In this document: one piece after another, positions 782 through 60,709 of the stretch | Numbering within the stretch: the first letter of the stretch is position 1 | Layout: each line of letters starts with the position of its first letter | NCBI GenBank assembly: GCA_030648055.1 | Contig: JAUSHI010000009.1 | Coordinates: 47,722 to 111,721, forward strand | Length of the DNA: 64,000 nt | Reading direction: 5' to 3' | From: a bacterium | GTDB lineage: Bacteria > Patescibacteriota > Minisyncoccia > Sungbacterales > SURF-37 | Position numbers and translations under genes: made by a program | Notes under the pieces: model-generated | Told to the model about the DNA's origin: nothing | The model's input: the letters and a program-made list of their open reading frames with translations, nothing else | The model's database searches: none

Positions 782-961
782 TTCAACTCCTTTTGAAAGA
801 ACTTGTGCTCGAAGCCGTGATTGTTATGTAGCATATCCGGTGTCGCAACGGCAAATTTAGATTATAGAAATATAAAATATGGTGTGAAGCGGGCACTGTG
901 GTGTTGTGACATCAGGCATAAACTATCGGGTTACAAAATGGGTATAATAATTTATCGGGTC

Positions 962-1918
962 ATGAGGAAAAAACTGGCGAAAAATAAAAAAGTCGTTGTT
1001 ATCGGCGGGGGAACAGGTGTTTTTACCGTGCTTTCCGGGCTTCGCAAGTATTCGCTTGATCTTACAGCGGTTATTTCAATGGCTGATGACGGCGGCTCAA
1101 CGGGCGTTTTGCGGGAAGAGTTCGGCATTCTTCCGCCGGGCGACATAAGAAGAGTGCTTGTGGCTATGTCGCGAACGGACGACCGCCTGCTTTCCGATTT
1201 ATTCAATTATCGTTTTGACCGTGGCGGACTGATGGGTCATACATTCGGAAACATAATGCTTACGGCGTTAGAACGCCTTACCGGAAGTTTTGAGAGCGCG
1301 ATAAAAGAGGCCTGCCGGATTCTCGGCGTGGAGGGCGATGTTTTGCCGGTAACGCTTACCAACACGCGGCTTGCCGCCGAATTGGAAGACGGTACCATAA
1401 TTCACGGCGAATCAAACATTAACATACCCAAACATAACGGCGGTCTCAAAATTAAACGTGTGTGGCTTGACCCTAAAGCTAAAATCAACGAGCGGGCGCG
1501 CGCGGCTTTAATCGCGGCGGACATGATTGTTATAGGGCCGGGCGATCTTTATACGAGCATAATTCCCAACCTCGTCGTTGGGGGCGTGGCTGACGCCATT
1601 CGGAAGTCCATGGCCCAAAAAGTGTACGTGGTTAATCTTATGACTAAGTGGGGGGAAACAAACGGATTTAAGGCACCAGATTTTATTGCCAGTATTGAAA
1701 AATATCTCGGCAAGGGTGTGCTTGATTACGCGCTTGTCAATTCCAAACAACCCTCTTCAGAACGGTTGAAGCATTACGAAAAAGAATCCGCCGAGTTTGT
1801 TGTCGCGGGCGGGTTTTTGAAAAAACCGGTTCCGGTTTTTGGAGATTTTTTGCGGAAAAAAGGTTTTGTGCGCCACGACCCAGACCGTCTTGCTAAAACT
1901 ATTGTGTCGCTATTATAA
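962..1918 (+). CDS. yvcK: YvcK/GlmR family (UPF0052) UDP-GlcNAc-binding protein
   Basis: VVVIGGGTG, DDGGSTG, PPGDIR, GHTFGN, GPGDLYTSIIPNL, RHD motifs; start reassigned to ATG at 962. Confidence 0.93.
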   Translation: MRKKLAKNKKVVVIGGGTGVFTVLSGLRKYSLDLTAVISMADDGGSTGVLREEFGILPPGDIRRVLVAMSRTDDRLLSDLFNYRFDRGGLMGHTFGNIMLTALERLTGSFESAIKEACRILGVEGDVLPVTLTNTRLAAELEDGTIIHGESNINIPKHNGGLKIKRVWLDPKAKINERARAALIAADMIVIGPGDLYTSIIPNLVVGGVADAIRKSMAQKVYVVNLMTKWGETNGFKAPDFIASIEKYLGKGVLDYALVNSKQPSSERLKHYEKESAEFVVAGGFLKKPVPVFGDFLRKKGFVRHDPDRLAKTIVSLL

Positions 1919-2015
1919 AATGAGCCGGGCGGCTTATTTTTTTGTAGAATACTGCCGCGCTTTTCAAAACGCGCGGCGACTTGTTTTCGGGAGATAAAAT
2001 TGTTATCACTTTGGT

Positions 2016-2152
2016 ATGCCGGGTAGTGAAAATTCGAATAGCCGCGTAGCGGCAAAATGAATTCAAATTAATACTTGGTGCAGTTTATTTATTCTGTTTT
2101 TTTATGAGAGGTCTTAGTTGTTAAATAATTCAAACTTCTACATACCCGGTAT
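2016..2152. repeat. GTAG-type palindromic element (family D)
   Basis: atgccgggtagtgaaaattcgaat ... attcaaacttctacatacccggtat imperfect inverted repeat, ending at the tsaC ATG. Confidence 0.65.
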
Positions 2153-2786
2153 GGCGTTAAAAATTATAAAACTTACTCAAGAAAATTATCAAAAAGCGCT
2201 TTCCTCCGCGGAGAAGGTTTTGAAGGGCGGCGGGATTGTTGTCGGGCCGAGCGATACGGTTTACGGCGTTTACGCCAGCGCTTTTGATAAAAAAGCGGTA
2301 AAAAAAATTTTTCAGTTTAAAAAACGCTCGCTTGAAAAAGCTTTACCCCTTTTTGTTAAAGATATCCAGCGCGCGCGGAAACTTGCTTATATTGATGACC
2401 GAAAAGCCGGGTTTTTGAATAAAGTGTGGCCAGGCCCGGTAACCGTAGTTTTTTACAAAAAAGATATTATTTCGGATTTAGTAAGCGGCGGAAAAGAAAC
2501 GGCGGGATTTCGCGTTCCCGATTATGTTTTTCTTGCGGATTTGATGGGCCGCGTTGATTTTCCAATCGCTCAAACTTCGGCGAATATTTCCGGCAACGAA
2601 CCGATTCGTTCTTTTGAGGAAGCTAAAGAACTCTGGAAAAACGAAAAATTAATTGATTTAATGCTTGACGGCGGAGAGCTGGCCAAGCAATCGTCAACCG
2701 TGATTGATTTTTCTCATAACGAGCCGATAATTTTACGTTCGGGAGTTATAACCAAAAAAGAACTTGACGAGGCGCTCGGCCGGTGA
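2151..2786 (+). CDS. tsaC: L-threonylcarbamoyladenylate synthase (Sua5/YrdC/TsaC)
   Basis: PSDTVYG, KKR..K.LP, WPGPVT, TSANISG, SSTVID motifs. Confidence 0.93.
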   Translation: MALKIIKLTQENYQKALSSAEKVLKGGGIVVGPSDTVYGVYASAFDKKAVKKIFQFKKRSLEKALPLFVKDIQRARKLAYIDDRKAGFLNKVWPGPVTVVFYKKDIISDLVSGGKETAGFRVPDYVFLADLMGRVDFPIAQTSANISGNEPIRSFEEAKELWKNEKLIDLMLDGGELAKQSSTVIDFSHNEPIILRSGVITKKELDEALGR

Positions 2787-2828
2787 TAATTTGCAGGTAC
2801 TCTTTCACACAGAAAGGCGGAGGGTGGA

Positions 2829-3212: not shown

Positions 3213-3276
3213 CCCCTTTTTTATTCACAGAGCGGCGGTTGCAACGGCATATACGCGCGGGTATGATACAAAGATT

Positions 3277-4220: not shown

Positions 4221-4274
4221 AGTATTTTCCTAAGGTAGTAATTTTAGAGCCTCTGTCTAAAACTAAAATCAAAA

Positions 4275-4654: not shown

Positions 4655-4657
4655 AGG

Positions 4658-5341: not shown

Positions 5342-6113
5342 TTAGGATACGAATGGGATCAGGTCTTCCAGAGAACGAAGTGTTTGTATGCGCGGGTGCT
5401 CCAGGGGTTGCGATTGGAAACCTTCACCACGGTCATGAGGGTTGAAGAGGGGTGAGCTTGAACCGTGCGGCACATAGATACCGCTCCATTCCTTTCCAAG
5501 AGAGAGGGCGGGTAGAATGTCGTTGTCGCCATTGCCGATGGCGAACCACCATTCAAACCGAGAGCTATCGGAAGTGTATCCGCTTACGCGACAGAAATCA
5601 TCCGCGGTTTTCTTCTGTTCTGTTGCCTGTACGCGTTCCTGCGGAAAAAATTCAAAAATGTTCATGTGTGTGGCACGGCGATGGAATAGTGCGGTGTCAT
5701 AGCACGAAAGAAGACAAAGGCGATGGCCGCCCGCTTTCAGGTGTTGGAGAACAGCACGGGCTTCCGGCAACCATTCTAGTTTTGTGTAGTCAAAAGGCAG
5801 ATCACCGATTGCGCGGACAAGCATTTCATGTTCCTGGCGATAATAGTTTTTTCCGAAGCGCCATTTTGCCCATGTGCATACTTCTCGGTAGAAGAGCGCC
5901 ATCGCTTCCGCGACTCTGCCCCGCCGTACTCCCCATTCTTTGAAGAGTTCTAGGTCGATCTCAAAATAACGATCTTTGACGTAGTGCAGGTTAGGGACGT
6001 GTCCTGGAAGCAGTTCATAGAGCACGCGGAAGAATTCTGAACGGGCGTGAGAATATTGCCACTCATTCATCCAGAGCGTGTCATCAGCATCAAAGACGAA
6101 TTACGTTCGGCAT
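5342..6113 (-). pseudogene. HAD-superfamily hydrolase with a one-base frameshift after codon ~5
   Basis: SD GAGGAGG + ATG at 6113 gives MPNVI; one extra base precedes VFDADDTLWMNE (HAD motif I), which is in frame with ORF 5342-6070; motif IV IGNGDND. Confidence 0.75.
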
Positions 6114-6232
6114 CTCGTCCTCCTCTTCGCAGGACCTTATTTTTTTAGTAGTATGTGAAAGTACTATTACTGGCTAGTTTATATTGCTTTTCTCGCGGGC
6201 ACAATTTTTCTTATACACAGTATTTGCACACT

Positions 6233-7498
6233 ATGCGCGACAAAGAAATTTTTTCACTCCTTCAGGAAGAAGCAAAGCGTCAGCAGGAGACGCTTGATTT
6301 GATACCGTCGGAAAATATTGCCTCCGCGGCGGTGCGCGAAGCGCTTGGCTCGGAATTTGTTAATAAGTATTCGGAAGGATATCCGGGAAAACGTTATTAC
6401 GGCGGGAATAAAATCGTTGACGAGGTTGAATTGCTCGCCCAAGAACGCGCGCGCAAAGTTTTTCATCTCGGTAAAAATTGGCACGTAAACGTTCAGCCGT
6501 ATTCGGGTTCTCCGGCAAATATGGCGGTCTATTACGCCCTTTTGGGTCCGTGTGAGTCTGCGCCAAGTCAGCGTAAGTCCGCGGATATTCTGGGCATGTC
6601 GCTTCCGTTCGGCGGGCATTTGACGCACGGATGGAAAGTTAATTTTTCGGGGAGATTTTATAAGTCGGCGCAGTACACGGTCGGTCGTGATGGGTTGATT
6701 GATTACAACGAAGTCGCGCGTCTCGCACGGAAAGAACGGCCAAAAATAATTGTAGCGGGCGCGACCGCGTATCCGCGGATTATTGATTTCAAAAAGTTTG
6801 CGGCCATCAGCCGCGAAGTCGGAGCGTATTTTATGGCGGATATCGCGCACATTGCCGGGCTTATTGCCGCCGGCGCTCATCCAACGCCTTTTCCTTTCGC
6901 GGATGTCGTGACAACGACCACGCATAAAACCCTTCGCGGCCCCAGAGGGGCTATGATATTCGCAAACAAAAATTCGCAGGTTGCAAAAAAGAATTTGGTT
7001 GATATTGCCTCAGCCATAGACCGAGCGGTATTTCCAGCCTTACAGGGCGGGCCTCATGACAACCAAACCGCAGCTATTGCCGTTGCGCTCGGCGAGGCCA
7101 TGGAGCCGTCGTTCAAAAAATACGGCCATCAGATCGTGAAAAACGCGAAAGTGCTTGCGCGCGAATTGCAAAAACTCGGATTCCGGCTGGTATCTGGCGG
7201 TACGGATAATCATTTGATGCTCGTGGACCTTACCAACCTCGGCATTTCCGGCAGAGAGGCCCAAGACCGGCTGGAGGAGGCGGGCATTATCGTCAACCGG
7301 AATACTATCCCGTACGATACGCGCTCGCCCTTTGATCCTTCAGGCATTCGTGTCGGCACACCATCAGTTACTACGCGAGGGATGAAAGAAAAAGAAATTA
7401 AAATAATTGCCGGATTTATTTATGAAGCTTTGACGAATGGCGGTGGGCGTGCTATGAATTTTAAAGTTAAAGCTCTTTGCAGAAAATTTCCTGTATAA
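6233..7498 (+). CDS. glyA: Serine hydroxymethyltransferase
   Basis: LIPSEN, NKYSEGYPGKRYYGG, GGHLTHG, TTTHKTLRGPRG, GGTDNHL. Confidence 0.98.
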   Translation: MRDKEIFSLLQEEAKRQQETLDLIPSENIASAAVREALGSEFVNKYSEGYPGKRYYGGNKIVDEVELLAQERARKVFHLGKNWHVNVQPYSGSPANMAVYYALLGPCESAPSQRKSADILGMSLPFGGHLTHGWKVNFSGRFYKSAQYTVGRDGLIDYNEVARLARKERPKIIVAGATAYPRIIDFKKFAAISREVGAYFMADIAHIAGLIAAGAHPTPFPFADVVTTTTHKTLRGPRGAMIFANKNSQVAKKNLVDIASAIDRAVFPALQGGPHDNQTAAIAVALGEAMEPSFKKYGHQIVKNAKVLARELQKLGFRLVSGGTDNHLMLVDLTNLGISGREAQDRLEEAGIIVNRNTIPYDTRSPFDPSGIRVGTPSVTTRGMKEKEIKIIAGFIYEALTNGGGRAMNFKVKALCRKFPV

Positions 7499-7505
7499 GG
7501 AGGGT

Positions 7506-7757
7506 TTGGCCATGACCATGAGGAAGCTAGAAATTTATAGCGGTATGATTATAATTTTATTGGGGATTGTATGGTTTGCTTTGATGACTTGGGCGATGAC
7601 TCTGCCCGGAGGAGGCGTTTACGTTTTACGGCACGGGGGTTCTGTTCATTCCGGTGAGTTTCTTTGGCAGACATTTGCAGTGTTAGTGGGTGTTTGGGCT
7701 GTTTTTATGGGGATGTTGGTTCTTAAAGAAGGGCGGAATACCAAAAAAGATCTTTGA
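7506..7757 (+). CDS. Small two-TM membrane protein
   Basis: Two hydrophobic segments; AAGGAGG upstream. Confidence 0.6.
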   Translation: MAMTMRKLEIYSGMIIILLGIVWFALMTWAMTLPGGGVYVLRHGGSVHSGEFLWQTFAVLVGVWAVFMGMLVLKEGRNTKKDL

Positions 7758-7843: not shown

Positions 7844-7981
7844 GGCCTCGCTTTTTTGTTTGGTTTTTATCTTAATTCAAAATGACCGGCCGGCCATTTT
7901 TAATTAAGATAAATTTTGGGTGGGTTTTATTGGTTGATTTTGTTGGTTGAGAAAGATTCCAAAATTTGTTACATTTAATCC

Positions 7982-8821
7982 ATGATTTTACTTGATGGCA
8001 GAAAACTTGCCGAGAAAATTCTCTCCGGTTTAAGGGAGGAAATCGTAAAGCGCAAGAAATTATTGCGGCTTGCCGTTGTGGTCGTCGGTGAAAATCCGGT
8101 GACTTTGAAATTTATTGAACAAAAAACGAAGGTCGCGAAATCTATCGGCGTTGACGTACGCGTTTATCATTTTAAAGAAGGAGTTACGACAAACGCGCTT
8201 CGTAAAAATATCGCCGCGATTGTGCGAGAAAAGAAAAACTCCGGCGTTGTTATTCAGCTTCCTTTGCCGCCACACATTAATTCGCAATATATTTTGAATG
8301 CCGTTCCTTCGGAAAAAGACGCTGACGTATTGTCAGCCAAGGCCCTCGGCAATTTTTTTGTCGGTAAGGCGGCTGTTTTGCCGCCGGTTGTCGGCGCGGT
8401 CAAGGCCCTTTTTAAAGAATATAACATTGATTGCCGCGGAAAAAATATAGCGGTGGCGGGCGCGGGGCGTTTGGTCGGCAAGCCCGTTGTGGCATGGCTC
8501 ATAAACGAGACTGGCACGGTAAGCATAGTAAATGAATTTACAAAAGATATTACTCAGTTTACGCGCGGGGCCGATATTATTATTTCAGGGGTTGGAAAGC
8601 CGAAACTTATAACTGGCGACATGGTAAAGGAGGGGGTTGTGGTAATTGACGCGGGAACTTCAGAGGCGGGCGGGAAGATCGCGGGTGACGTTGATTTTGA
8701 TTCAGTATCCGGAAAAGCGGCTTATATTACTCCTGTTCCCGGGGGCATCGGGCCGGTAACAGTCGCGATGTTGCTTGATAATTTAGTTACGCTTTCTAAA
8801 CAGAAAAGACAGACAGAATAA
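7982..8821 (+). CDS. folD: Bifunctional methylene-THF dehydrogenase/cyclohydrolase
   Basis: LLDGRKLA, IQLPLP, EKDAD, GDVDF, TPVPGGIGPVTVAML. Confidence 0.96.
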   Translation: MILLDGRKLAEKILSGLREEIVKRKKLLRLAVVVVGENPVTLKFIEQKTKVAKSIGVDVRVYHFKEGVTTNALRKNIAAIVREKKNSGVVIQLPLPPHINSQYILNAVPSEKDADVLSAKALGNFFVGKAAVLPPVVGAVKALFKEYNIDCRGKNIAVAGAGRLVGKPVVAWLINETGTVSIVNEFTKDITQFTRGADIIISGVGKPKLITGDMVKEGVVVIDAGTSEAGGKIAGDVDFDSVSGKAAYITPVPGGIGPVTVAMLLDNLVTLSKQKRQTE

Positions 8822-9575: not shown

Positions 9576-9727
9576 TTATTGGCCCCTTATTATGAAGGCT
9601 TGTAAATGAACTTTTGCCTTCAGCGTATACCAATAGTTCATTTTGGCAAGTAGCGTGTTATGGGGCTTAAACAGCGCCCCTTTTAGATTAATGCGATGCG
9701 GTGGCGTTGAGTCATGATATAGATACC

Positions 9728-9756: not shown

Positions 9757-9822
9757 GTAAGTCAAAGTCAGAGGAGAGTGATGATCTTTTCCAAAACAAA
9801 TCACCAACAGGAGGAAGTAGCG

Positions 9823-18140: not shown

Positions 18141-18260
18141 AGAATTATTGAGAAGGCGAAATCGGGATCGGTTATACATTTTTTAATTTGACGGTAAAAA
18201 TAAAAGATGATATCAATACATATCAAGCCAAGGTTCTTTAAAACCAAAGGAGCGGCAAAA

Positions 18261-32680: not shown

Positions 32681-32758
32681 CAATCCTTGACCGGTTTATG
32701 GCATTGCATTAGTATTGTTTAGGAATAAGTTCGTTAAAAAATTAAATAAAGAAAGAGG

Positions 32759-38079: not shown

Positions 38080-38122
38080 AGGGTAAGCGCAAAGTTCGTT
38101 GACATTTTAGGAGGGTCTGCAC

Positions 38123-39277: not shown

Positions 39278-40167
39278 TGGATGCCTCTTTTTTTTCAGCT
39301 CGTCCCTCTGTTTCGTTGCGGCTTAAGATCGGGCGCGTACTTACGCAATTTCGTGGCGGCATTCATAAAAGTAGGGTCATTGGGGGAGGTCATGAGTTCA
39401 GGGGCTTTCGGCCCTGGAGTTCAGACGACAGTCCGTCACGGATCAACTATCCCGCATCATATAAACTTTCGCCCGATCTTGACGAAGTTGTTGTTCGGAC
39501 GTCATACGGAGAGAAACGAACTTCTGTTGTTGTTGTTTTTGATGCGCGCGCAACAATGCTGAGTCCGTCTCAAAAGATGGTGCACGCAGGAAGCCTTTTT
39601 TGGCTTTTTGCTCTTTCTGCTTTCCAGGCGCACGACCGATTCCGGGCGATGTTCATGTTAGATAGTGGGTTTGTGGATTCCGGGTGGGTATCAAAAGAAG
39701 ATAATCTCGCAGAGTTTCTTGACCAGGATATTTTGGGACGGAGAGCGAGTGCATTATTTCTTCGTGCAGAGAATCCTCTTTCGCTGCTTGTTGATGAGCG
39801 TACTCGCGATGCGTTTCTTATCGTGCTTTCTGACTTCTGTACTTCATGGGATAAAGAGATCACGGCGTTTTCATTGCTCGGCGCGCAGGAAAATAATATT
39901 CATGGCGCATTTCTCGCTATGGACGAGTGGGCTGGTTCGGTATCGCTTGGTTACAGCATGAATATTCGAGACCTTCGTACGGGTGTGTTTCATCGGATGA
40001 CCAGCGGTGATCTTGACGAGGCGGCACGAGCCGCATGTGAGTCGTATTTACGCTTTTCTCGAAAACTTGACCAACACTCCGCTTCGTTCATTAAAATTCC
40101 GCTCACGAATGACCCAATTGCTTCATTTTGCCGTGCCGCGCTTGGGTTTGAGCTTAAAATAGAATAA
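39277..40167 (+). CDS. DUF58 family protein
   Basis: G.H.S...G.G.EF...R.W...D....I; D...TM; LSDF. Confidence 0.85.
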   Translation: MDASFFSARPSVSLRLKIGRVLTQFRGGIHKSRVIGGGHEFRGFRPWSSDDSPSRINYPASYKLSPDLDEVVVRTSYGEKRTSVVVVFDARATMLSPSQKMVHAGSLFWLFALSAFQAHDRFRAMFMLDSGFVDSGWVSKEDNLAEFLDQDILGRRASALFLRAENPLSLLVDERTRDAFLIVLSDFCTSWDKEITAFSLLGAQENNIHGAFLAMDEWAGSVSLGYSMNIRDLRTGVFHRMTSGDLDEAARAACESYLRFSRKLDQHSASFIKIPLTNDPIASFCRAALGFELKIE

Positions 40168-40286
40168 GCAATCTTTTATATTCCGTACCCGATGGGTACG
40201 GTTTTTTCTTTCTTGACAAGGGAGGGGCTTTACGTGGTATATATTGTTTAAATAAGATCTTTGACATTTCTAAAAAGGAGAAACAC

Positions 40287-41894
40287 ATGAGACGACTGGT
40301 GCCTCTTTTGCTTCTTGCTTTCTTTTCCGTTCATCTTCCCGTCTTCGCCGCGGATGACAAACCCAAAAACAATATTTCCTGGCGTCTTCGTGATTTGTAT
40401 TACCATGATGCTAACGGCACGATAGTTCAGCTTGAGCTTGCTCGAAAGCTTTTGGTCCGATTTACCCGTGAAATATCCAATGAGGAAAAAACGGCTCTAC
40501 TCGCGGAATTTTCTCCTATTGCCCAGAAGGAACAGCCTGGTAATCCGTCTCGCATCGTTTTTTCGTTCAATGAATCCACTTCGCTGTCTGATATTCTTGA
40601 CGCGGCAAATAAAATTACTGCCTCTGGCAATGCCGAGGCGTCGCTGGTTTTCTTTGTTGATAATATCGAGGCGGTACTTGAAGGAGTTGTTATTGAACCC
40701 AAAATTGTTCTTACTCCAGATCGGCTTAAGGCCAGAATGCAAAAGTATGGCGGTTTCACGTTACGTCAGGCGGTCAGTGAAAACGGCTCTTGGATTTTTC
40801 TAATTGACGAGGTAAAGCCGCCGCTCAATCTTCTTGTGCTTACAAATCTTATCTCAAATGATATTTGGGTTCGGCGTGCATATCCGCGGTTTAAGTTCCT
40901 GCATGATCCAATCGTTGCTTCCATCAATGTGGAGCCGGTATCGGGGACAATAGGCGAGACGCGAACAATAATATTCACGGTCAAAATCTTTGATTCAGCA
41001 ATAACACTTTCAACAGAGTATCCCGAGTTTGGTGCCGGACTTTTTCGGCCGATTCAAGGGTCGCCGTCAAGCCCTTTAAGTATACGCCATGTGCCTGGGC
41101 ATCTTTTTGAGCTTGTTGGAGATCCGGTGAGGCATCCCGTAAAACAAGAGAAACGGAGCAGGGTGTATACGACATCATGGAAGTTCAAACACTACGCGGT
41201 CGGTGAATGGGTAATACACCCGCTGACTGTTCCTTATACCAAAAACGGGGTTGCTCAAGAGATCAAGTCATCAGGCTTTACGCTTGTGGTTAATTCACAG
41301 ATCGGTAATCTCAATATTACTGATATGCCAAATCCGCGCTCACTTATTTATTTTTCCGAGAAATCCGAGGCTCCTCCCATTGCCGCACTTCCGCCGGTTC
41401 CATCATATTGGTTTGACGCATGGACGTCGCATGCCGATATTATTGCGCGATACGCCGGGTTTGCCGGGATGTTACTCGGCACATTGCCGGTGGCAGGAGC
41501 AGCAGTACTTGTTGTCTGTGTGGTAAAAAGAAACAGAAAGAAGGCGCGTGAGCGTCGTTATAGGGTCAAGCACATTGAGGAGCTTTTGCAAGAAGCCTAC
41601 GCGAACCATTCATATGCTAAATATGATGAGGCGCTTTCCTTCATGTTTGCCGCACTTTTTCCCGATCTTCCCTTGCATCCTGCTTGGGAAGACGTCAAAA
41701 ATAATGACGGCGCTTGCGAAGTTTTTGGCGGTGAAACAATGGCGCATCTTGAAATGGTTTTCGGTAAACTCAGTCGGCGATACGCGAGTAACTTTACGCC
41801 TAGTACGGAAGACATCATGAAGCTTCACGAAAGTATGTGTAGTATCTTTGACACAGTGAAGCGGGTTCTAAAAATGGAAAAGGAGGTCCGGTGA
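40287..41894 (+). CDS. Exported, membrane-anchored BatD-like protein with tandem prodomain-like N-terminal modules
   Basis: Signal peptide; beta-sandwich (TIGE...FTV, GEW.I.PLTV.Y); C-terminal TM followed by basic patch. Confidence 0.6.
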   Translation: MRRLVPLLLLAFFSVHLPVFAADDKPKNNISWRLRDLYYHDANGTIVQLELARKLLVRFTREISNEEKTALLAEFSPIAQKEQPGNPSRIVFSFNESTSLSDILDAANKITASGNAEASLVFFVDNIEAVLEGVVIEPKIVLTPDRLKARMQKYGGFTLRQAVSENGSWIFLIDEVKPPLNLLVLTNLISNDIWVRRAYPRFKFLHDPIVASINVEPVSGTIGETRTIIFTVKIFDSAITLSTEYPEFGAGLFRPIQGSPSSPLSIRHVPGHLFELVGDPVRHPVKQEKRSRVYTTSWKFKHYAVGEWVIHPLTVPYTKNGVAQEIKSSGFTLVVNSQIGNLNITDMPNPRSLIYFSEKSEAPPIAALPPVPSYWFDAWTSHADIIARYAGFAGMLLGTLPVAGAAVLVVCVVKRNRKKARERRYRVKHIEELLQEAYANHSYAKYDEALSFMFAALFPDLPLHPAWEDVKNNDGACEVFGGETMAHLEMVFGKLSRRYASNFTPSTEDIMKLHESMCSIFDTVKRVLKMEKEVR

Positions 41895-43102
41895 TGTTTG
41901 TGTCCCTGGTTTCGGGGCATCCATGGTGGTTACTTTTGCTCATTCCTATCGTAATCGGAGTTTTTACGCGAATTCCCTCAACATACATTTCCAAGGCGCA
42001 TTCTCATATTGCGCCTTTTTTTCTCATAGCGGGAACTCGATGGGGGAGGGCTTTACGATATATTGTCCATACTCTTCCTTCTTTTGTGAGCGTGCTTGTT
42101 TTGATATTAATCGTTGTGGCACTCGTTGATGTTACCAGGGGCTATGTCGTTGTAGTAGGACAAAAGATTTCCCAGCGCCTTATTGTCGCTCTTGACGTTT
42201 CAAGCTCGATGTATGGCTTTAGCACCAACCTTCCGACCGTAACTTGCCGGAAAAACTCTATGCTATTTCCGCGCATTCACGGATCTTGCCGCGCGCTTTA
42301 TCGCGTGGTGGACGATATTGAGAAGGAAACAAAAGATGAACTACGCCCGCGGATATTAATTGGTCTTATGCAGTGGGCATACAGATCGGCTGTTGTTTCG
42401 TATCCAACATCCGATTACAAGCGCTATCGTGAGAAAATCGATATGCTTGAATTCAGGTCGCATAACCTTGGTGCTTCTACGGGCATGCATGGAGCTCTTT
42501 GGGACATGTTTCTTATGTCGTTAGACAGGAACATGAAAAAGAATTCCGGATTTATGCATTTTTCCGGTAAAGATATGCAGGTGATTTACGCGTCGCTTGC
42601 GCCAGGACCAAAGGAATCATCATTATATCTTCCTAAGGATATAATGCAAAAAGTTGCCAAGGTTAAAGAAGAGATGCGGGATACGGTTTTTATTATACCG
42701 ACCGATGCGGTGGTTTCATATCTTGAGAGCCGTATGGACGGGCAACATCCTTCAATAAGGCGTCTTCTTCAACTTGCTGAAATTTTTGAGATTCCGGTTT
42801 ACTTCATCTCAACAGATGAAGATTATCCGGAACTTAAGCGTCTTGCGCGCCGCACAGGCTTCGGGCCTGCCGGCGGACTGCAACGCGGGGACTTCAAGAT
42901 TGTTCGGAAGGAAGGCGATGCCTATCTCATTGATGAGGTGATGAGCGGGGTTCTAAAATCTCGTTTCGGGCTTACGGTTCCCACATACGAAACACGCCGC
43001 GAATCGTATGCTGATCTCGCTCTTGAACTTGCATTGACATTTGCCCTCTTTGGGGTACTGTGGAAAAAGTTAGTGGTTCGCTCTTTGACAGATAGGGAAT
43101 AG
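41891..43102 (+). CDS. vWA-domain membrane protein (BatA-like)
   Basis: N-terminal PWWLLLL TM, MIDAS DVSSS, TD, C-terminal TM. Confidence 0.85.
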   Translation: MMFVSLVSGHPWWLLLLIPIVIGVFTRIPSTYISKAHSHIAPFFLIAGTRWGRALRYIVHTLPSFVSVLVLILIVVALVDVTRGYVVVVGQKISQRLIVALDVSSSMYGFSTNLPTVTCRKNSMLFPRIHGSCRALYRVVDDIEKETKDELRPRILIGLMQWAYRSAVVSYPTSDYKRYREKIDMLEFRSHNLGASTGMHGALWDMFLMSLDRNMKKNSGFMHFSGKDMQVIYASLAPGPKESSLYLPKDIMQKVAKVKEEMRDTVFIIPTDAVVSYLESRMDGQHPSIRRLLQLAEIFEIPVYFISTDEDYPELKRLARRTGFGPAGGLQRGDFKIVRKEGDAYLIDEVMSGVLKSRFGLTVPTYETRRESYADLALELALTFALFGVLWKKLVVRSLTDRE

Positions 43103-43113
43103 GAGAGGGGACA

Positions 43114-43896
43114 ATGATGAAGAAATGGGTAACTCTTGGATTAGTTTTATTTTTTATCGCGCTTGCGCTAGTTGGGTTTTCCCGCTATGTGAGGGTGCGA
43201 CTTGACGAAAGGCGCGCTGTTGCTGAAACGCGTGCGCGCCTTGAGACAGAGGCGAAGCTTGTTTCAACCGATCGGGTTGAAAATATCATGACAAAGCTTG
43301 AAAAACTCAGGCGTCTTGAAGACATGGAAGAGTTTGCTGTCAAGAATATCGCGAGCCTCCCTCAAGGAGAGCGCACGGTCGTAGGGCCCGCGTTTCGAGT
43401 GAAACTTTTCGGAGCATATTTTCGCAGAGGAGAACTTCTCCTTGGCCGTGCCGGTGATCTTCTTCGGAAGGATGAGAACCATCCAACCGGAAAGGAGTAC
43501 ATTGAGCGCGCCCGGAAGATTTATGAGAAAATGGATAAGCTTATTGACGAAGGTGTCTCTGCACACTCCAAAGATGCGGAGGAAAATGCACGGCTTAACT
43601 ATTTGAAAGGTGTATATTATTTTCGCTCACTGGTTTTCATAACAGACGCGAAAGCCGAGGCGCCGCGCGTGGAAGAGCTTGTTGGCCTTTCCGCCAAACA
43701 TCTCTCGGCGGTATTCCAGTACAAACCAAAGGATCGCGATACAGAAGTTGCGCTTGAGATTCTTCAAAAGAAAGCGCAACAAATGGGCGCCGGCGGTGAT
43801 GGTTCCGGCAAAATGCAACTCGAACTTTTGCCTTCTCAAGGCAATAATCAGGGCCCGACCTTTTCAATCGAAGGGTCAGAGGGCGGAAGGCATTAA
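43114..43896 (+). CDS. Membrane-anchored helical/TPR-like protein (BatC-like position)
   Basis: N-terminal TM; YLKGVYY; P.DRDT..ALEIL; operon context. Confidence 0.6.
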   Translation: MMKKWVTLGLVLFFIALALVGFSRYVRVRLDERRAVAETRARLETEAKLVSTDRVENIMTKLEKLRRLEDMEEFAVKNIASLPQGERTVVGPAFRVKLFGAYFRRGELLLGRAGDLLRKDENHPTGKEYIERARKIYEKMDKLIDEGVSAHSKDAEENARLNYLKGVYYFRSLVFITDAKAEAPRVEELVGLSAKHLSAVFQYKPKDRDTEVALEILQKKAQQMGAGGDGSGKMQLELLPSQGNNQGPTFSIEGSEGGRH

Positions 43897-43986
43897 GTTC
43901 ATGCAAAACACATTTCAGTTAAACGTCCCCTTACGGGGACTTTTCTTTTCCTGCAAGATCGGGTCAAAAGAAAGGAGGCACAAAAA

Positions 43987-45210
43987 ATGACAATGCATTT
44001 TCCATTAGCGTTTGACCTTGTGTTCCGTCATCCGTCACGGTTTTGGTGGGCATCTGTTTTCGCTTTAGTTTTTCTTCTTGTTTTATTGGAAGGACGAAAG
44101 AGGGCTGCAGCGTTTCAGCACCCATGGATAGCGCTTCACTCCTCGACGTCAAATCTTCCTAATTTTTTCGCGCGTTTGTGCTGGTGGACTTGTTGGACTG
44201 TTGCAACAATCCTTTTGGTGGCCGCGTACGCGAATCCCGAGAGGGTTTTTTATGACTGGGAGCGGGTATTTGAGCGAATTCGCATTTCGTTCATTCTCGA
44301 CATATCGCACTCAATGAAAAAAGCTGAAGATGTTTTACCAAATCGGCTTGAGGCGGAAAAAGGCGTTGTCCGGGATTTTGCCGCAAAGCTGGAACAAGAC
44401 AAAGAACTGAAAGGCAAATATTCTTTGGCGCTTATTCCGTTCTCCGGAGCCGCATTGCCTTACTATCTTCCGTTTACAACCTCGCGGGATGAGTTTCTTG
44501 CGCATCTTGATGCGATGGATACGGATACGGTCAATCGCAAAGGAACAAGTTTGTGGGCGGCGATTCGGGCTTTCGACGAACTGTTGCTTGCAAAGCCGGC
44601 GTCGGATAAAGGTACGGTGGATCTGGGCATTCTCATTTCTGACGGCGGCAAGGAAGAAGGGAAAAAGGAGCGCGCACTTATTCCGCGCACCATCGATGAA
44701 TTGCGCGATCCGTATCGGGCGCCGCGTCTTACGATGAGCGGAGAACGGGTTATAGTAAGAGCGAGAGAATCGCAGAGGAAGGTGGTATTAAATACAGTTG
44801 GAATTGGCAAGATTGAAATTAATGAAGGAAGGCGCGTACCATATCCCGCGCGTCTCATTAATCGCGATAAAGCCGGAAATTTCATGGGGTACGATCACGT
44901 GAAAGAAGATGATTCGAAAGGCCCCGTGCTTACCACTATGCTTGATGAGCAGATTCTTAGTGAGGTGGCTGTACGTGGCGGCGGGGTGTACCGGCATTTT
45001 TATGATCACGAAACCATACTGCAGGAGTTTAAGGCATTTGTGCTGGCAAATCGCGTCGAAGTTGATAAAATTCCTGTGCCGCGATATGAATCAGTGCGCG
45101 CGTGGTTCCTCGTCCCCGCATTTATAATGTATTATTTTCTCTTCGGTTATGGCGTATGGATGCTCCGCTTTTTTTCACGGATCTTAAGAGTGAATCGCCG
45201 AAGCTTCTAA
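43987..45210 (+). CDS. vWA-domain membrane protein (BatB-like)
   Basis: LDISHSM...DV.PNRL, PFT, GT, ISDG, TVGIG, LDE..L..VA...GG.Y. Confidence 0.88.
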   Translation: MTMHFPLAFDLVFRHPSRFWWASVFALVFLLVLLEGRKRAAAFQHPWIALHSSTSNLPNFFARLCWWTCWTVATILLVAAYANPERVFYDWERVFERIRISFILDISHSMKKAEDVLPNRLEAEKGVVRDFAAKLEQDKELKGKYSLALIPFSGAALPYYLPFTTSRDEFLAHLDAMDTDTVNRKGTSLWAAIRAFDELLLAKPASDKGTVDLGILISDGGKEEGKKERALIPRTIDELRDPYRAPRLTMSGERVIVRARESQRKVVLNTVGIGKIEINEGRRVPYPARLINRDKAGNFMGYDHVKEDDSKGPVLTTMLDEQILSEVAVRGGGVYRHFYDHETILQEFKAFVLANRVEVDKIPVPRYESVRAWFLVPAFIMYYFLFGYGVWMLRFFSRILRVNRRSF

Positions 45211-45328
45211 GGATCACTTATAAAAATACTTAGCTACCCCATTGGGTAGCTTTTTTCATATGATTTGACCGTGCGGTGATAGATGTGGTATTACAAAGCA
45301 AGTTCCTTGAAATATAAAGGAGGGGAAA

Positions 45329-46366: not shown

Positions 46367-46589
46367 TATAAATAGCCAAATGATACGGCCCAAGGGGGCC
46401 GTATTTTATTTTTATTTTGGCAAACGCCCATATGATTATTATTTTAAATCCCACCAAATAGAATCTATGGATATTATTTGATGGCAGAGGAACGGGGGTG
46501 TTACGGATAGTTTATGGGTTGACCTACATAAGGTTGGCTTGCTACAGATGAGCTAATTCGTTTGTTCCTTTAAATTTAAAGGAGGCCGC

Positions 46590-48292: not shown

Positions 48293-48380
48293 TGACTCAA
48301 TTATTTTTATGTAGTACAGCTAAATATATAGCAGGTTCGTTTAAAACCTCTACGGAGGAAATAAGAAAAGGAGAAAGCTC

Positions 48381-52729: not shown

Positions 52730-52758
52730 TTGACAAAAACCGAAAAGTGCGCTAAAAT
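52730..52758 (+). promoter_or_regulatory. sigma70 promoter, probably giving leaderless lepB mRNA
   Basis: TTGACA-N17-TAAAAT, 6 nt before the ATG. Confidence 0.7.
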
Positions 52759-52764
52759 GCGATA

Positions 52765-53316
52765 ATGGATCAGGAAACATCATTTGGAAAGAGCGTAAAA
52801 GAGTTTGTTAAATTTCTTCTTATTGCTTCCGCGATTGCTCTTCCAATACGGTATTTTATAGCACAGCCCTTTATTGTTAAGGGTGCCTCAATGGTCCCCA
52901 CGTTTGAAAACGGACAGTATTTGATTGTTGATGAAGCGACTTATTTTTTGCGTCAGCCGGCGCGCGGCGAAGTAATTGTATTTCGTTATCCGCTTGATCA
53001 GCGGCAATTTTTTATTAAACGCATAATCGGCCTTCCTGGCGAGACGGTAGAGGTAAAAGACGGTAAAGTGAAAATTGATCTTCCAAACGGGAGAGGAGAA
53101 ATGGTTTTGGACGAGCCGTATCTTCCCAAGGACTTGCGAACCGACGGAAATACAAAAGTTGCGCTTGGAATAGAAGATTATTTTGTTCTCGGCGATAATC
53201 GTTCACAGAGTTCAGACAGCAGAATGTGGGGGGTTTTGCCGAGGAGCCTGATAACCGGGCGCGCCTTAATACGGGCTTGGCCGGTTTCTGCGGCAGGTAT
53301 ATTGGTTGGTCACTAA
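52765..53316 (+). CDS. lepB: Signal peptidase I
   Basis: GASMVPT, FIKRIIGLPGE, GDNRSQSSDSR. Confidence 0.95.
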   Translation: MDQETSFGKSVKEFVKFLLIASAIALPIRYFIAQPFIVKGASMVPTFENGQYLIVDEATYFLRQPARGEVIVFRYPLDQRQFFIKRIIGLPGETVEVKDGKVKIDLPNGRGEMVLDEPYLPKDLRTDGNTKVALGIEDYFVLGDNRSQSSDSRMWGVLPRSLITGRALIRAWPVSAAGILVGH

Positions 53317-55571: not shown

Positions 55572-55829
55572 ATGGTTTACGCGATTAGAAAACAAAAAGA
55601 AACCACCGGCGCTCTTTTGCGGCGTTTTACAAAAAACGTCCAGCAATCCGGAATTCTTCTTGAGGCAAGGCGTACCCGCTTTTTTTCTAAAAAGAAGAAT
55701 AAGCGTGCGCGAAAAATCAGCGCGTTGAGGAGAATGAAGCTCGGCAAAGAGCGGGAAAAACTTATGAAGCTCGGCCGGTTAAGGCCAAAGGAAAAAAGAC
55801 CCCGCCCGACAAGAGAGCTTTCTTCGTAG
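55572..55829 (+). CDS. rpsU: 30S ribosomal protein S21
   Basis: E....LLRRF...VQQSGIL.EAR..RFF, basic; HIT-rpsU-yqeY synteny. Confidence 0.82.
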   Translation: MVYAIRKQKETTGALLRRFTKNVQQSGILLEARRTRFFSKKKNKRARKISALRRMKLGKEREKLMKLGRLRPKEKRPRPTRELSS

Positions 55830-55874
55830 AGGTTTTTTGTGATGGGTTTTTATGCCAGGTAGTGAAAATTCGAT

Positions 55875-56336
55875 ATGGATACAAAAGAAAAAATAGCGGG
55901 CGATCTGAAAGAGGCCATGAAAAATAAGGAGGAGTTGCGTCTTTCGGTTTTAAGGATGATTTTTTCGGCTCTTCACAATAAAGAAATTGAAAAGCGGGGT
56001 AGGGGCCTGCCCGCGAAGCTTTCCGTGGAAGAAGTAGTCGCTGTATTGAGGACTGAGGTTAAAAAGCGTAAGGACTCCGTAGAAAGTTTTGAAAAAGGAG
56101 GGAGGCAGGAACTTGCCGAAAAAGAGAAGAAAGAGATTAAAATCATTGAGCCGTATTTGCCATCAGAGCTTTCAGATAGCGACTTGGAAAAAATCGTCAG
56201 TGAGGTTGTCGCGGCCGCCGGCGAGGTCACTCAAAAGGATTTTGGCAGGGTTATGGGCGAAGTTATGAAAAAAATTAAAGGCCAAGCATCGGGAGATAGG
56301 GTAAGCGCGCTTGTAAAAAAACACTTGTATAAATAA
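55875..56336 (+). CDS. yqeY: GatB/YqeY domain protein
   Basis: DLKEAMK, LRM, EVKKRKDS...F.KGGR.EL, YLP, GRVM. Confidence 0.93.
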   Translation: MDTKEKIAGDLKEAMKNKEELRLSVLRMIFSALHNKEIEKRGRGLPAKLSVEEVVAVLRTEVKKRKDSVESFEKGGRQELAEKEKKEIKIIEPYLPSELSDSDLEKIVSEVVAAAGEVTQKDFGRVMGEVMKKIKGQASGDRVSALVKKHLYK

Positions 56337-56374
56337 AAAAGCGCGGACTTTTGTCCGCGCGAGCGAGAAGTGTG

Positions 56375-56704
56375 TTAACCAATACCGAGAAGTTTGGCGA
56401 GTCCGCCAGCAAAGATGAGGCAAAGTAGAAGCCACGCGCCGTAGGTGAGCCACCCCGCAAGGGGGAAAAAAAGATGGAGCAATGGCCATGAGAACATAAA
56501 GACCAGTTGGTCCATTAGAAGTGTGTGTTCCCTGCAGTTATTTGGGCTTGTAATCGACCATACTATTTGCCAGAAGGTCTGCGGAACTTTGCAGAGAATG
56601 CGGTTGTGCCAATAAGTTCCGAGTGCCCACCCGATATTGAGGTATAGGGCGAGAAAAACAACATAAAGCATGCTGTATACAGGGTGGTTCCTCAAGTATT
56701 TCAT
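56375..56704 (-). CDS. Small multi-TM membrane protein
   Basis: Hydrophobic ORF with SD GGAGG. Confidence 0.7.
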   Translation of the reverse strand: MKYLRNHPVYSMLYVVFLALYLNIGWALGTYWHNRILCKVPQTFWQIVWSITSPNNCREHTLLMDQLVFMFSWPLLHLFFPLAGWLTYGAWLLLCLIFAGGLAKLLGIG

Positions 56705-56750
56705 TCTTACCTCCAGTTAGGGGTTTTTAAAAAGCTGTCAGTGTGTTTCT

Positions 56751-57137: not shown

Positions 57138-57149
57138 AAGGGTTAATGG

Positions 57150-58388: not shown

Positions 58389-58499
58389 CAGGAATTATTA
58401 AAACACTAACCCAGATTTTGTAAAGGTTGTCTTTTAAGGACGCAGGCTTATTATAAAAGAGGAGTTCCACATTTTTAAAAATCTATAATTTTTGTAAAC

Positions 58500-59594
58500 A
58501 TGCCTCAAATAAAACCGGAAATTGAAACATTCGCGCGGATTAAAGTGGTCGGAGTTGGTGGCTCCGGCGGATCGGCGATTACTCGTATGATGGAAGCGCG
58601 GGTCCGTGGGGTTGATTTTATCGCCGTTAATTCTGATGCGCAGGCGCTTCACAACAATAAAGCCAGCCACAAGATTCATATCGGGAAGAATTTGACACGG
58701 GGGCTGGGCGCGGGTATGAACCCCGAAGTAGGCCGCCAGGCCGCTGAAGAAAATCGCGATGAATTGCACGAGAGCTTAAAAGGAGCCGACATGATTTTTA
58801 TTACCTGCGGGCTTGGCGGTGGGACCGGTTCCGGGGCCGCACCCATTGTTGCTGAAGTGGCGAAGGAATCCGGCGCCCTTACGGTCGCTGTCGTAACCAA
58901 GCCATTCGGTTTTGAAGGAAGCCAGAGGATGCGCATAGCTGATGAGGCATGGACAAAGTTAAAGGACAAAGTTGACGCTTTAATTACTATTCCAAACGAT
59001 AGAATTTTAAATGTTATTCAAAAAGACACTTCATTGGTTAAAGCTTTTGAGACATGCGATGACGTTTTAAAACACGCGGTGCAGGGCATTTCGGATTTGA
59101 TAATTATGCCAGGTCTTGTCAATGTTGACTTTGCCGATGTGCGGGCAGTGATGCAAGACGCGGGCTCGGCTCTGATGGGTGTCGGCATTGCTACGGGCGA
59201 GACGAGAGCGGTGGACGCGGCAAAGGCCGCGGTGTCCTCGCCCTTGCTTGATCTTTCAATTGACGGCGCGAAGGGTGTGCTCTTTAATGTTTCGGGTGGG
59301 TCGGATATGACTATGTGGGAAATCAACGAGGCGGCGAAAACCATCACCGAATCAGTTGATCGCGACGCGAAACTTATTTTTGGGGCTGTGCATGACGAAC
59401 GCCTTAAGAAGGGTGAAATTAAGATTACGGTTATTGCTACAGGTTTTAATGGTATGGGTAAGACTTCGGACTCAAAGAAACCGGGAGTTTTTGGGACAAC
59501 CCTTGCCAAGAGTGACGTTTCTTCGCGTATTGAGGTTAAAAGTGAGGATGATGAATGGGATTCGGTACCGGCATTCTTGCGAAGGAAAAAGTAA
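58500..59594 (+). CDS. ftsZ: Cell division protein FtsZ
   Basis: GGGTGSG, NVDFAD, C-terminal VPAFLRR. Confidence 0.98.
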   Translation: MPQIKPEIETFARIKVVGVGGSGGSAITRMMEARVRGVDFIAVNSDAQALHNNKASHKIHIGKNLTRGLGAGMNPEVGRQAAEENRDELHESLKGADMIFITCGLGGGTGSGAAPIVAEVAKESGALTVAVVTKPFGFEGSQRMRIADEAWTKLKDKVDALITIPNDRILNVIQKDTSLVKAFETCDDVLKHAVQGISDLIIMPGLVNVDFADVRAVMQDAGSALMGVGIATGETRAVDAAKAAVSSPLLDLSIDGAKGVLFNVSGGSDMTMWEINEAAKTITESVDRDAKLIFGAVHDERLKKGEIKITVIATGFNGMGKTSDSKKPGVFGTTLAKSDVSSRIEVKSEDDEWDSVPAFLRRKK

Positions 59595-59784
59595 CAATTA
59601 TGATGTTTTATAAAAATGCCCATTGTGTGGGTATTTTTTGTTTTCGGCTCGGTTAAATAAAGAAGCGGTCAAAATGTTCCAAATAGCAAGCGACCGCTTT
59701 CTATTTGGAACATTTCAAATTTTTGTCGTTAATTTGCCTTTAAAAGTTGTGGTTTTCTGAAAAGAAAAAAGCCGCAAGACGCGG

Positions 59785-60687
59785 CTATTTGTTTATATTT
59801 TTCTGTTTGTTGATAATCTCCTCAAGCTTAATCTCCTCAAGTTGGGTAAGCACGTCCGGAGCAATACGCTCCAAGACCCCTCTTTCTCTCCCGTCTGTGT
59901 AGGCCCGGCTCATGTGATTGGGATAGGTGCGGGCGAATTCAAGAAGATAGCCGGCGAGCGTTATCAAGTCAGCATCTGTTGGTCCTCCTTGTTCCTCCTC
60001 TATCTGGCTGAAAAGTGGACCTCTTATTGCCCATTGAAGAGCTGAAACCACGATACTATTGTCGGGATGGTCCTTTTGTTTTACGGAAAGTTTGGTTAAA
60101 GAGGTTATGATCTTTTTTCCGTAGCGCTGCCAGTGTTCGGTTGTTATGTATGAAAGGCGACCTATATATGAAAGGCGACCGAGGGCGGTGTATCCTTCCC
60201 CGTCCCGATACCAGACACTATCTGGGTCAGTCCAGCCAGCGGATTCCAGCTCTTCTTCAATCTGAGAGAATAACGCATCAGCCACCCGATAGTCATGCGG
60301 CCTTTCCTCCGGCTTCATTAGAAAGAGGACATGGGCAAAAGTTTCAACAAGCATTTTAAGAGCGTAGCCCTTGGTCACGCCTGCCGACTTCATGGCTTCT
60401 GTAATGTTTTGGATACCGCAGTTCTGGAGTGCTACTTCAGGCACGGAAGGCACAATTTCTAGAGGCATGTTGGCCGTCTCGTTCCACGGCGTTTTAGCGT
60501 CCTTTCCACAAACCACAAGCGTGCCATCTTCGGCGAGGACTTTCGCGTAGCCGCCGCCTGATTTCAAGCGCTCGGCGCAGAGCTCTTTTGTCCGCGAAAG
60601 CGAGCGAATTTCATCGGTTGAGGCGAAACTACAAAAAGGAAAGCCAAAAAGCAGTAGCGCGATAAACGCTGGCACGGTTTTTTTCAT
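59785..60687 (-). CDS. Secreted hypothetical helical protein
   Basis: Signal peptide MKKTVPAFIALLLFG...SFA; SD AAGGAG. Confidence 0.75.
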   Translation of the reverse strand: MKKTVPAFIALLLFGFPFCSFASTDEIRSLSRTKELCAERLKSGGGYAKVLAEDGTLVVCGKDAKTPWNETANMPLEIVPSVPEVALQNCGIQNITEAMKSAGVTKGYALKMLVETFAHVLFLMKPEERPHDYRVADALFSQIEEELESAGWTDPDSVWYRDGEGYTALGRLSYIGRLSYITTEHWQRYGKKIITSLTKLSVKQKDHPDNSIVVSALQWAIRGPLFSQIEEEQGGPTDADLITLAGYLLEFARTYPNHMSRAYTDGRERGVLERIAPDVLTQLEEIKLEEIINKQKNINK

Positions 60688-60699
60688 AGCTTCTCCTTA

Positions 60700-60709
60700 T
60701 TAAAGAGCA
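60700..60709 (-). promoter_or_regulatory. boxA-like element TGCTCTTTAA directly upstream of the SD
   Basis: Matches the E. coli rrn boxA core; one of about 12 related leaders in the window. Confidence 0.6.

Follow-up and report, generated by a model that had tools for sequence, protein, structure and literature searches.

The 64,000-nucleotide stretch analyzed here (hereafter the window; positions 47,722 to 111,721 of the forward strand of contig JAUSHI010000009.1, assembly GCA_030648055.1) comes from a bacterium of the order Sungbacterales (Patescibacteriota) and carries a repeated 11-nucleotide box, consensus GTTCTTTNA(A/C)A, that precedes genes with strong Shine-Dalgarno (SD) sites. A preliminary description of the window had listed 12 copies of this motif, likened it to boxA, which binds NusB/NusE, and proposed that box and strong SD together mark accessory genes in a two-class mRNA system licensed or silenced by a Nus-type mechanism, the core genes having neither signal. 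All 12 copies are present (two had been listed slightly off register, the true 11-mers lying at 792–802 and 60698–60708), and all score between 5.2 and 10.4 with a matrix derived from the genome.

On the plus strand, the listed copies precede a Nudix gene at 2829 (box at 2799–2809; score 5.9, SD −10.0 kcal/mol, the unit used for all SD energies; Pfam NUDIX), a 132-residue orphan with a hydrophobic N-terminus starting at 9823 (9783–9793; 7.9, SD −10.3), a queuosine-salvage gene at 32759 or 32765 whose SD is weak (32729–32739; 8.9, SD −5.8; Pfam Q_salvage), an AAA_3 (MoxR-type) ATPase gene at 38123 (38094–38104; 10.3, SD −10.7; Pfam AAA_3), where the box lies 9 nt past a −10-like hexamer, and a 535-residue gene at 40287 (40256–40266; 10.4, SD −8.7), where it is one base off the published Bacillus subtilis rrn boxA core. 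They are followed by copies before a trypsin and PDZ protease gene at 45329 (45302–45312; 9.0, SD −12.1), a BT1-family transporter gene at 46590 (46564–46574; 7.5, SD −11.0) and an S41 protease gene at 48381 (48335–48345; 8.2, SD −8.7), all three assigned by Pfam. The minus-strand copies adjoin the SD of a hexapeptide-repeat transferase gene at 74–781 (792–802; 9.4, SD −8.2; Pfam Hexapep), precede an 87-residue orphan without a Pfam match starting at 9575 (9601–9611; 9.0, SD −7.6) and a 109-residue orphan starting at 56704 (56725–56735; 5.2, SD −9.9), and adjoin the SD of a 300-residue orphan starting at 60687 (60698–60708; 7.3, SD −9.3). The weakest copies are those at 56725, where position 4 is not the conserved C, and at 2799, where position 1 is not G.

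Six further boxes were found in the window. Those at 18233–18243 (+; 8.5, SD −8.3; a 284-residue gene starting at 18261, no Pfam match) and 6154–6164 (−; 9.6, SD −12.0) score highly, as does that at 43080–43090 (+; 8.9, SD −8.6), which lies within the end of the preceding gene, past a possible internal promoter recognized by eye, and serves an SD-led gene at 43114. Weaker boxes lie at the end of glyA (7472–7482, +; 5.6, SD −12.7; an SD-led 81-residue gene at 7512) and within the end of the ATPase gene (39254–39264, +; 5.6, SD −11.4; an SD-led gene at 39277), and a box scoring 6.5 lies within the end of the 535-residue gene (41843–41853, +; SD −11 to −12.3; an SD-led gene at 41891 or 41894). 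The box at 6154 belongs to the SD-led start at 6113 of a frame-broken open reading frame (ORF) entering 5342–6070 (−); that start yields 7 codons only, and the frame beside it reads FDADDTLW, presumably a HAD-hydrolase motif, and continues into a 242-residue ORF, so that the gene is either frame-broken near its start or mis-assembled. Five other matches accompanied by SD-like words sit inside coding regions and were treated as chance. The ATPase gene heads a MoxR/vWA-type cluster (38123–45210, +) of six genes, all with a strong SD and five with a box; three of these boxes lie within the end of the previous gene. Elsewhere in the window, at 55572–56336 (+), a bS21 gene (Pfam) is followed by a 153-residue ORF, which we take to resemble YqeY. 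The bS21 protein is reportedly often missing in Parcubacteria (PMC9297842).

The core genes of the window form the contrasting class. The statement that yvcK, dcd, glyA, folD, parA, hisS, ftsZ and lepB lack both signals was borne out: their identities were confirmed by Pfam (yvcK as a CofD-family match), their leaders score from −2.3 to 3.9, and their SD energies are −3.3 kcal/mol or weaker. At the starts of folD (7960–7984, +) and lepB (52745–52767, +), a −10-like hexamer lies 6 nt upstream with neither SD nor box, and both mRNAs are predicted to be leaderless.

The genome containing the window (G000; 614,506 bases in 9 contigs, 85% complete), whose size, gene content and 16S tail suggest a Parcubacteria-type organism, yielded 625 genes with a simple caller of our own, a self-trained hexamer model, and the 622 with enough upstream DNA were used. 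Start codons were shifted to the best SD wherever an SD reached −6 kcal/mol against the canonical 16S tail, and start errors are expected. With a strong SD defined as −8 kcal/mol or better, the leaders comprise 101 strong-SD, 46 mid-SD and 475 SD-less sequences. A de novo search restricted to the 101 strong-SD leaders, with a second-order background, returned GTTCTTT(T/G)AAA as its top motif; the unrestricted search over all 622 leaders gave low-complexity motifs only. At a matrix score of at least 5, the threshold used for leader sets, the box occurs in 57 of the 101 strong-SD leaders (2 in reverse complement, 2.8 after shuffling), 7 of the 46 mid-SD leaders and 7 of the 475 SD-less leaders (13.8 after shuffling). 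The coupling of box to SD (57/101 vs. 7/475) has a Fisher p of ~1e-42, and the motif is neither without enrichment over shuffled leaders nor equally frequent before core genes, either of which would have refuted the preliminary proposal. The pattern of the preliminary description, which involved no training, is found in 17 of the 101 strong-SD leaders (0 reversed, 0.1 shuffled) and 2 of the 475 SD-less ones. Similarly, a matrix trained on the 89 strong-SD leaders outside the window recovers 9 of the 12 strong-SD leaders within it (0 reversed, 0.6 shuffled) and 2 of its 44 SD-less leaders (1.25 shuffled). The genome-wide set comprises 64 genes with SD and box, about one gene in ten.

To divide accessory from core genes we used two relatives, G006 of the same family and the single-contig G032 of the same order, accessory genes having homologs in neither and core genes in both. 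Among the 64 genes with SD and box, 47 have no homolog in these genomes, 10 have one in a single genome and 7 in both; one of the seven is a mis-called start inside uL3. The 261 accessory genes include 71 with a strong SD, 47 with SD and box and 168 without an SD, as compared with 16 strong-SD and 7 SD-plus-box genes among the 285 core genes. The existence of two mRNA classes is supported, and the strict accessory/core line is not; the division is better described as one between leadered mRNAs, with an SD and often a box, and leaderless or short-leader mRNAs.

Most of the boxed genes are transcription units of their own. Of 59 that are first in their unit, 52 are single-gene units, and a hairpin with a U-tract terminator follows 34 of the 59 units, compared with 37 of 186 core units. 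Antitermination through long operons, akin to the role of boxA in rRNA operons, would find little to act on here. Pfam was run on 50 proteins (49 of the 51 encoded by SD-plus-box genes outside the window, with a 50-residue ORF and the mis-called uL3 start left out, and one from the window). The 20 with matches are mostly proteins of amino-acid catabolism and nucleotide salvage, hydrolases and envelope proteins, and include proline dehydrogenase, arginase, Glu/Leu dehydrogenase, TldD, IMPDH and cytidine deaminase. One gene with box and SD encodes an MlaC-family protein [L198:4-594 (−), equivalent to G000:C9:55000-55593]; MlaC is typical of diderm (two-membrane) bacteria. The GC content at third codon positions of strong-SD accessory genes is ~0.08 above that of core genes in G000 and G006 (genomes of 45% and 59% GC, respectively) and 0.01 above in G032. 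A strong box without an SD also precedes a tRNA-Ile(TAT)/Lys(TTT)/Leu(TAA) cluster [G000:C5:7269-7572 (+)]; a general tie of the box to tRNA genes was rejected, as 1 of 30 tRNAs is chance level.

From its position relative to promoters, the box is predicted to be part of the transcript. Promoters were scored with a sigma-70-like consensus of our own, and the transcription starts are predictions. Among 122 intergenic box matches scoring at least 6, 65 have a clear promoter upstream, and in 41 of these the box starts 5–20 nt past the −10 hexamer, compared with 4 of 41 random positions. No box starts at 3–5 nt, the distribution peaks at 6–7 nt (14/65), and for extended −10 hexamers 11 of 21 boxes lie at this distance. 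We therefore predict that the box begins at or shortly after +1. The motif is strand-specific (2 reverse matches in 101 leaders), and both points support the preliminary reading of it as an RNA element. Between the end of the box and the start codon there are 10–36 nt in the 64-gene set, the scan window setting the limits of this range; a few long leaders have the box next to the promoter and the SD 50–175 nt further on. Core genes are arranged differently: the −10 hexamer lies at most 10 nt from the ATG in 40 of 99 SD-less core genes that are first in their unit and have a clear promoter in G000 (36/78 in G032, 21/53 in G006), as opposed to 1 of 59 strong-SD genes in G000 (0/118 in G032, 0/34 in G006). 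At homology-checked starts, TAnnnT occurs 5–8 nt before the ATG in 27 of 119 genes vs. 12.3 in control windows. Many core mRNAs, though not all, are thus predicted to be leaderless or nearly so.

The likeness to boxA was upheld. The Escherichia coli and B. subtilis boxA consensus words score 9.3 and 9.6 with the genome matrix, and 46 of the 101 strong-SD leaders contain a word within two mismatches of GYTCTTTAANA (8.7 shuffled). The B. subtilis boxA word binds NusB directly (PMC13753749), and G35 and C38 of the lambda nutR boxA matter most for NusB:NusE binding (PMC2800207); the equivalent positions are G in 62 and C in 58 of the 64 sites, which were picked by the same matrix. We also compared the motif with the rRNA leaders of the order. 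Among 17 distinct 16S leaders, 11 have a conserved hairpin that we chose by eye as an anchor, and 8 of these 11 contain a box scoring at least 3 within 70 nt past the hairpin (mean score 4.4; 1.4 reversed, 1.8 shuffled; 1/11 reversed leaders), with that of G000 itself scoring 6.3. The motif may thus have a counterpart in the anchored 16S leaders; the unanchored scans show no excess and the third base differs, as detailed below. The 23S gene of G000 is absent from the assembled contigs. Several other features were noted around the rRNA genes. Just past the 16S 3′ end (L002, G000:C9), the trailer contains a long inverted repeat in which an AGGAGG-containing arm pairs with a CTTCCTCCT-containing arm; in the 16S leaders of L003, L012, L016 and L030 similar arms enclose short stretches resembling ORFs, and the predicted 16S leader of G000 contains a small SD-led ORF in antisense orientation [G000:C9:53023-53118 (+)].

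The abundance of strong SDs must be set against the state of the 16S rRNA. In G000, a strong SD at the correct spacing precedes 16% of ATG-start genes, as opposed to 3% of internal ATGs, and the 16S end lacks CCUCC. The 16S anti-SD, which the preliminary description had asked to be checked, is thus reduced to an all-pyrimidine tail that can pair with these SDs by G-U wobble only. The 15 tails read within the order are pyrimidine-rich with C-to-U changes; none has CCTCC and 2 keep CTCCT, whereas nearly all of the 71 tails read outside the order carry CCTCC. The SDs pair far better with the canonical tail (−10.7 kcal/mol) than with their own (−4.5 kcal/mol). Own-tail pairing averages −4.4 kcal/mol for accessory SD leaders and −1.2 for core leaders; it rests mostly on purine content (−3.5 after shuffling), and it still separates the classes, with 73% vs. 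5% at −3.5 kcal/mol or better. The spelling of the SD also shifts with the tail: GGGG-only vs. GGAG SDs number 9 vs. 97 with a CUCC tail and 40 vs. 141 with a UUCU tail (p = 0.003, for three genomes only, two UUCU and one CUCC). SD-led genes follow resident codon usage as well (89/89 in the GC-rich G006, 40/56 in G000). Based on this shift and on the codon usage, we suggest that the resident ribosome reads these genes. Across the order, SD excess does not sort cleanly by tail type, with genomes of UUCU tail ranging from 147 vs. 35 control matches (G005) to 42 vs. 44 (G012).

Other readers of the SD were sought and rejected. CCTCC- or CTCCT-like words elsewhere in the G000 16S gene, as a displaced anti-SD, are few and implausibly placed; a CTCCTT follows the tail at 20 nt, and was not seen in relatives. 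Nor is the 16S gene likely to be mis-binned or one of two, since none of the 15 tails has CCTCC and the single-contig G032 shows a single 16S locus, its tail decayed in the same way. The SDs do not appear re-tuned to the complement of the own tail, as AAAAGAA occurs in 2 of 101 leaders (a set picked by canonical energy) and SD-less genes carry no own-tail signal. The G000 assembly yielded no CsrA, which could have recognized the GGA motif.

The genome encodes nusB, for which the preliminary description had proposed a check, and uS10; its NusB is intact and homologous to NusB of solved structure. The gene is present in 55 of 61 genomes of the order and 114 of 121 of the phylum, and RNase J is also present. 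The Rho RNA-binding domain was found in none of 41 genomes of the order, nor was Rho_N found in G000, and SuhB/inositol-monophosphatase family genes occur in 11 of 31 genomes, with none found in G000 or G032. The repression of E. coli suhB, named as a precedent in the preliminary description, could therefore not run in full here. A strong box overlaps the start of nusB in G000; autoregulation of nusB by the box was rejected, as there is 1 strong match in 30 nusB loci and it is not conserved. Short tandem repeats of 6–8 bases abut the start codon upstream of many nusB genes of the order (L032–L060).

We also searched for box and SD together across the phylum. A strict pattern has 40 matches, in 27 of 121 genomes, vs. 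6 in the control, with none in G000; a looser pattern has 22 matches in G000 vs. 1 control. The looser pattern is in excess over the 113 nusB-bearing genomes (726 vs. 455 control; 75 genomes above control, 30 below) and below control in 7 genomes without nusB (28 vs. 54), of which 5 belong to family f17 (15 vs. 44). In this family (G067, G094, G118, G142, and G164) nusB was not found in any of the five genomes, and the 4 tails read keep CCTCC or CTCCT. Its SD-ATG matches show no overall excess (242 vs. 256 control), although one genome has 49 vs. 29, and in 400 kb of one member 6 of 316 genes have a strong SD, none of them with a box. Read-through of TGA in G118 was dismissed, as 38 alignments showed no in-frame stops, and the result was unchanged. 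The two other genomes without detected nusB (87–88% complete) have an SD excess and no box excess. We regard the joint loss of nusB, box and SD in f17 as one lineage event, a lead rather than a test. The idea that the box compensates for anti-SD loss was rejected: the 16S tail could be read in 19 of the 27 genomes that match the strict pattern, and CCTCC is present in every one of these 19.

The box is probably bound by NusB-S10. Our preferred, though tentative, explanation of the whole is that this boxA-like site would license, that is raise the expression of, leadered and mostly lineage-specific mRNAs, the core being largely leaderless and without either signal. Transcription would start at or just before the box, and NusB-S10 would bind it as it leaves the RNA polymerase. 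The bound complex may keep the short leader single-stranded, where the U-rich box would otherwise fold weakly onto the SD, and may protect the 5′ end against RNase J for as long as it takes a ribosome, its 16S tail weakened to wobble pairing, to load. The two-class layout would, on this proposal, predate anti-SD decay in the order. NusB-bound S10 is blocked from the ribosome (PMC10931766), which makes a direct tether to the 30S subunit unlikely and would require a hand-off. In E. coli, the main role of the Nus complex on rRNA is in maturation rather than antitermination (PMC4807359), and such a role would fit the retention of nusB without Rho.

Several observations weigh against licensing by NusB-S10. 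Most accessory genes have no box (47 of 261 carry it with an SD). The pairing of box and SD is weak and generic: it is −3.5 kcal/mol for real pairs, −3.7 for permuted ones and −2.0 with an rRNA-type box, with no gene-specific covariation (P = 0.81), and a box-SD hairpin under gene-specific selection is unsupported. In the relatives the G000 matrix finds the box in 9 of 140 strong-SD leaders of G006 (0 reversed, 2.5 shuffled) and 22 of 183 of G032 (5 reversed, 6.5 shuffled), so the coupling there is enriched yet far weaker than in G000, and de novo searches in these genomes returned a drifted motif or the −10 hexamer alone. Without the anchor, 16S leaders show no excess (10 matches vs. 10 reversed and 9.8 shuffled), nor do 23S leaders (7 matches in 13 usable loci vs. 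9 reversed and 3.8 shuffled), and position 3 is A in all 15 listed rRNA boxes and mostly T (50/64) in the mRNA sites. The genes nusA, nusG and that for bS1 were not found in the 85%-complete G000 assembly, and are present in 4 of 4 relatives; the box at nusB of G000 is not counted, given its lack of conservation. Finally, f17 is a single AT-rich lineage that also lacks SDs, and could not show the box pattern regardless.

The strongest rival, which we consider unlikely, differs in the direction of control: NusB-S10 on the box would repress translation as at E. coli suhB, and the accessory genes for catabolic and secreted proteins would make up a single silenced regulon that free NusB-S10 adjusts. 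The leader of suhB is the sole tested mRNA boxA, and it represses even when 100 nt separate the box from the SD (10.1101/091223). The long leaders described above, the short distance from box to start codon elsewhere, and the scavenging theme shared by the annotated targets would all suit such a regulon. However, repression at suhB needs the full Nus complex and Rho termination (10.1101/091223), while Rho and, in most genomes, SuhB were not found here; the box ends at least 10 nt before the start in all 64 sites, within the bounds of the scan; and a site that silences its own gene would have to be maintained in dozens of unrelated genes. We favor licensing over silencing because the promoter, SD and terminator of these units are all features that promote expression, the Rho-dependent step of silencing is lacking, and protein on the 5′ end would block the hairpin and guard against RNase J.

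Alternatively, the box may be a landing site for bS1 that enhances SD-led initiation, with leaderless core mRNAs needing none; we consider this improbable. In E. coli, the A/U-rich rrnB boxA has been placed in front of an SD to enhance translation (PMC2176067), and the title of a reference in that paper points to specific binding of S1 to boxA. A bS1 site would explain the tight tie between box and SD, the relatives carry a four-domain S1 protein, and the box precedes 4 of 14 operon-internal strong-SD genes in G000 compared with 1 of 192 internal SD-like controls. This enrichment is absent from G006 (0/20) and G032 (1/29), however, and some of the internal cases have their own promoter. In addition, the box in long leaders tracks the promoter and not the SD, precedes the SD-less tRNA cluster (itself at chance level among tRNAs), and belongs to the same family as the boxes of rRNA leaders.

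More doubtful still is the possibility that these cassettes come from, or are made to work in, other cells (donors or a host) that possess Rho and an intact anti-SD, with box and SD being relics or active only after transfer. The better fit of the SDs to the canonical tail, the near-universal CCTCC outside the order, the mRNA boxes being nearer to canonical boxA than are the rRNA boxes of the lineage, and an MlaC target, typical of diderms, are as expected from such an origin. Set against it are the resident codon usage of the SD-led genes, the shift of SD spelling with the resident tail (three genomes only) and the separation of the classes that the own tail still achieves. Least probable is an element that acts in DNA, either as an initial-transcribed sequence that RNA polymerase recognizes or as an operator immediately past strong promoters, since the sharp peak 6–7 nt past the −10 hexamer that it would explain is accompanied by spacings from 6 to >20 nt, a non-palindromic and strictly one-stranded motif, promoter-like sites of core genes without a box, and members of the same family that, in rRNA leaders, lie a long way past the promoter.

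A further step, which we put forward as speculation and hold to be distinctly unlikely, is that in Patescibacteria SD-led translation is a separate accessory channel gated by NusB-S10 on a 5′-terminal boxA rather than by the 16S anti-SD, with a Rho-free Nus complex handing these mRNAs to the ribosome. Such gating would explain why strong SDs persist with a decayed anti-SD in the order and vanish with the loss of nusB despite an intact anti-SD in f17. The reported job of NusB is in antitermination complexes that block Rho (PMC13753749), in addition to the repression of a few mRNAs. A lineage in which no Rho was found, and which retains nusB almost universally and has boxA ahead of accessory mRNAs by the dozen, suggests that NusB-S10 has a function at the level of mRNA that does not depend on Rho. 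The matter bears on what Nus factors do without Rho and on what reads SDs where the 16S has lost CCUCC. In practice, the layout of promoter, box, SD, ORF and terminator can help to locate start sites, and to recognize genes under separate regulation, in Patescibacteria.

The feature itself is real and strong, and we found no earlier description of boxA-led accessory mRNAs in Patescibacteria in the literature searched, in which subscription papers were few. Its parts have counterparts elsewhere. The 16S tail lacks CCUCC in about half of Parcubacteria, where SD helices are thought not to form (PMC9297842, Tsurumaki et al., 2022), whereas in G000 16% of ATG-start genes keep a strong SD and wobble pairing is possible. 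The boxA/bS1 enhancer (PMC2176067) likewise has boxA 5′ of the SD, and was engineered, while the boxes described here are natural, repeated and tied to promoters. Closest in arrangement are the 5′ untranslated region of E. coli suhB and the putative boxA sites in gammaproteobacterial mRNAs (Baniulyte et al., 10.1101/091223 = PMC5725501), in which a boxA of near-identical consensus lies a few bases before the SD. In that group there are 0–7 perfect-match boxA sites per genome, compared with ~64 matrix matches in 0.6 Mb here (the criteria differ), and targets are often related to translation, whereas ours are mostly lineage-specific, in a setting with no Rho found, a patchy SuhB and no conserved site at nusB. 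The rRNA boxA bound by NusB-S10-NusA-NusG(-SuhB-S4) in E. coli (PMC4807359) and by its B. subtilis counterpart (PMC13753749) is matched in consensus, with NusB and uS10 present and candidate related boxes in the 16S leaders of the order and before several 23S genes, these rRNA copies of the order differing at position 3. The rRNA boxA heads a long untranslated RNA, however, whereas the box described here is predicted to stand at the head (~+1) of short, mostly single-gene mRNAs.

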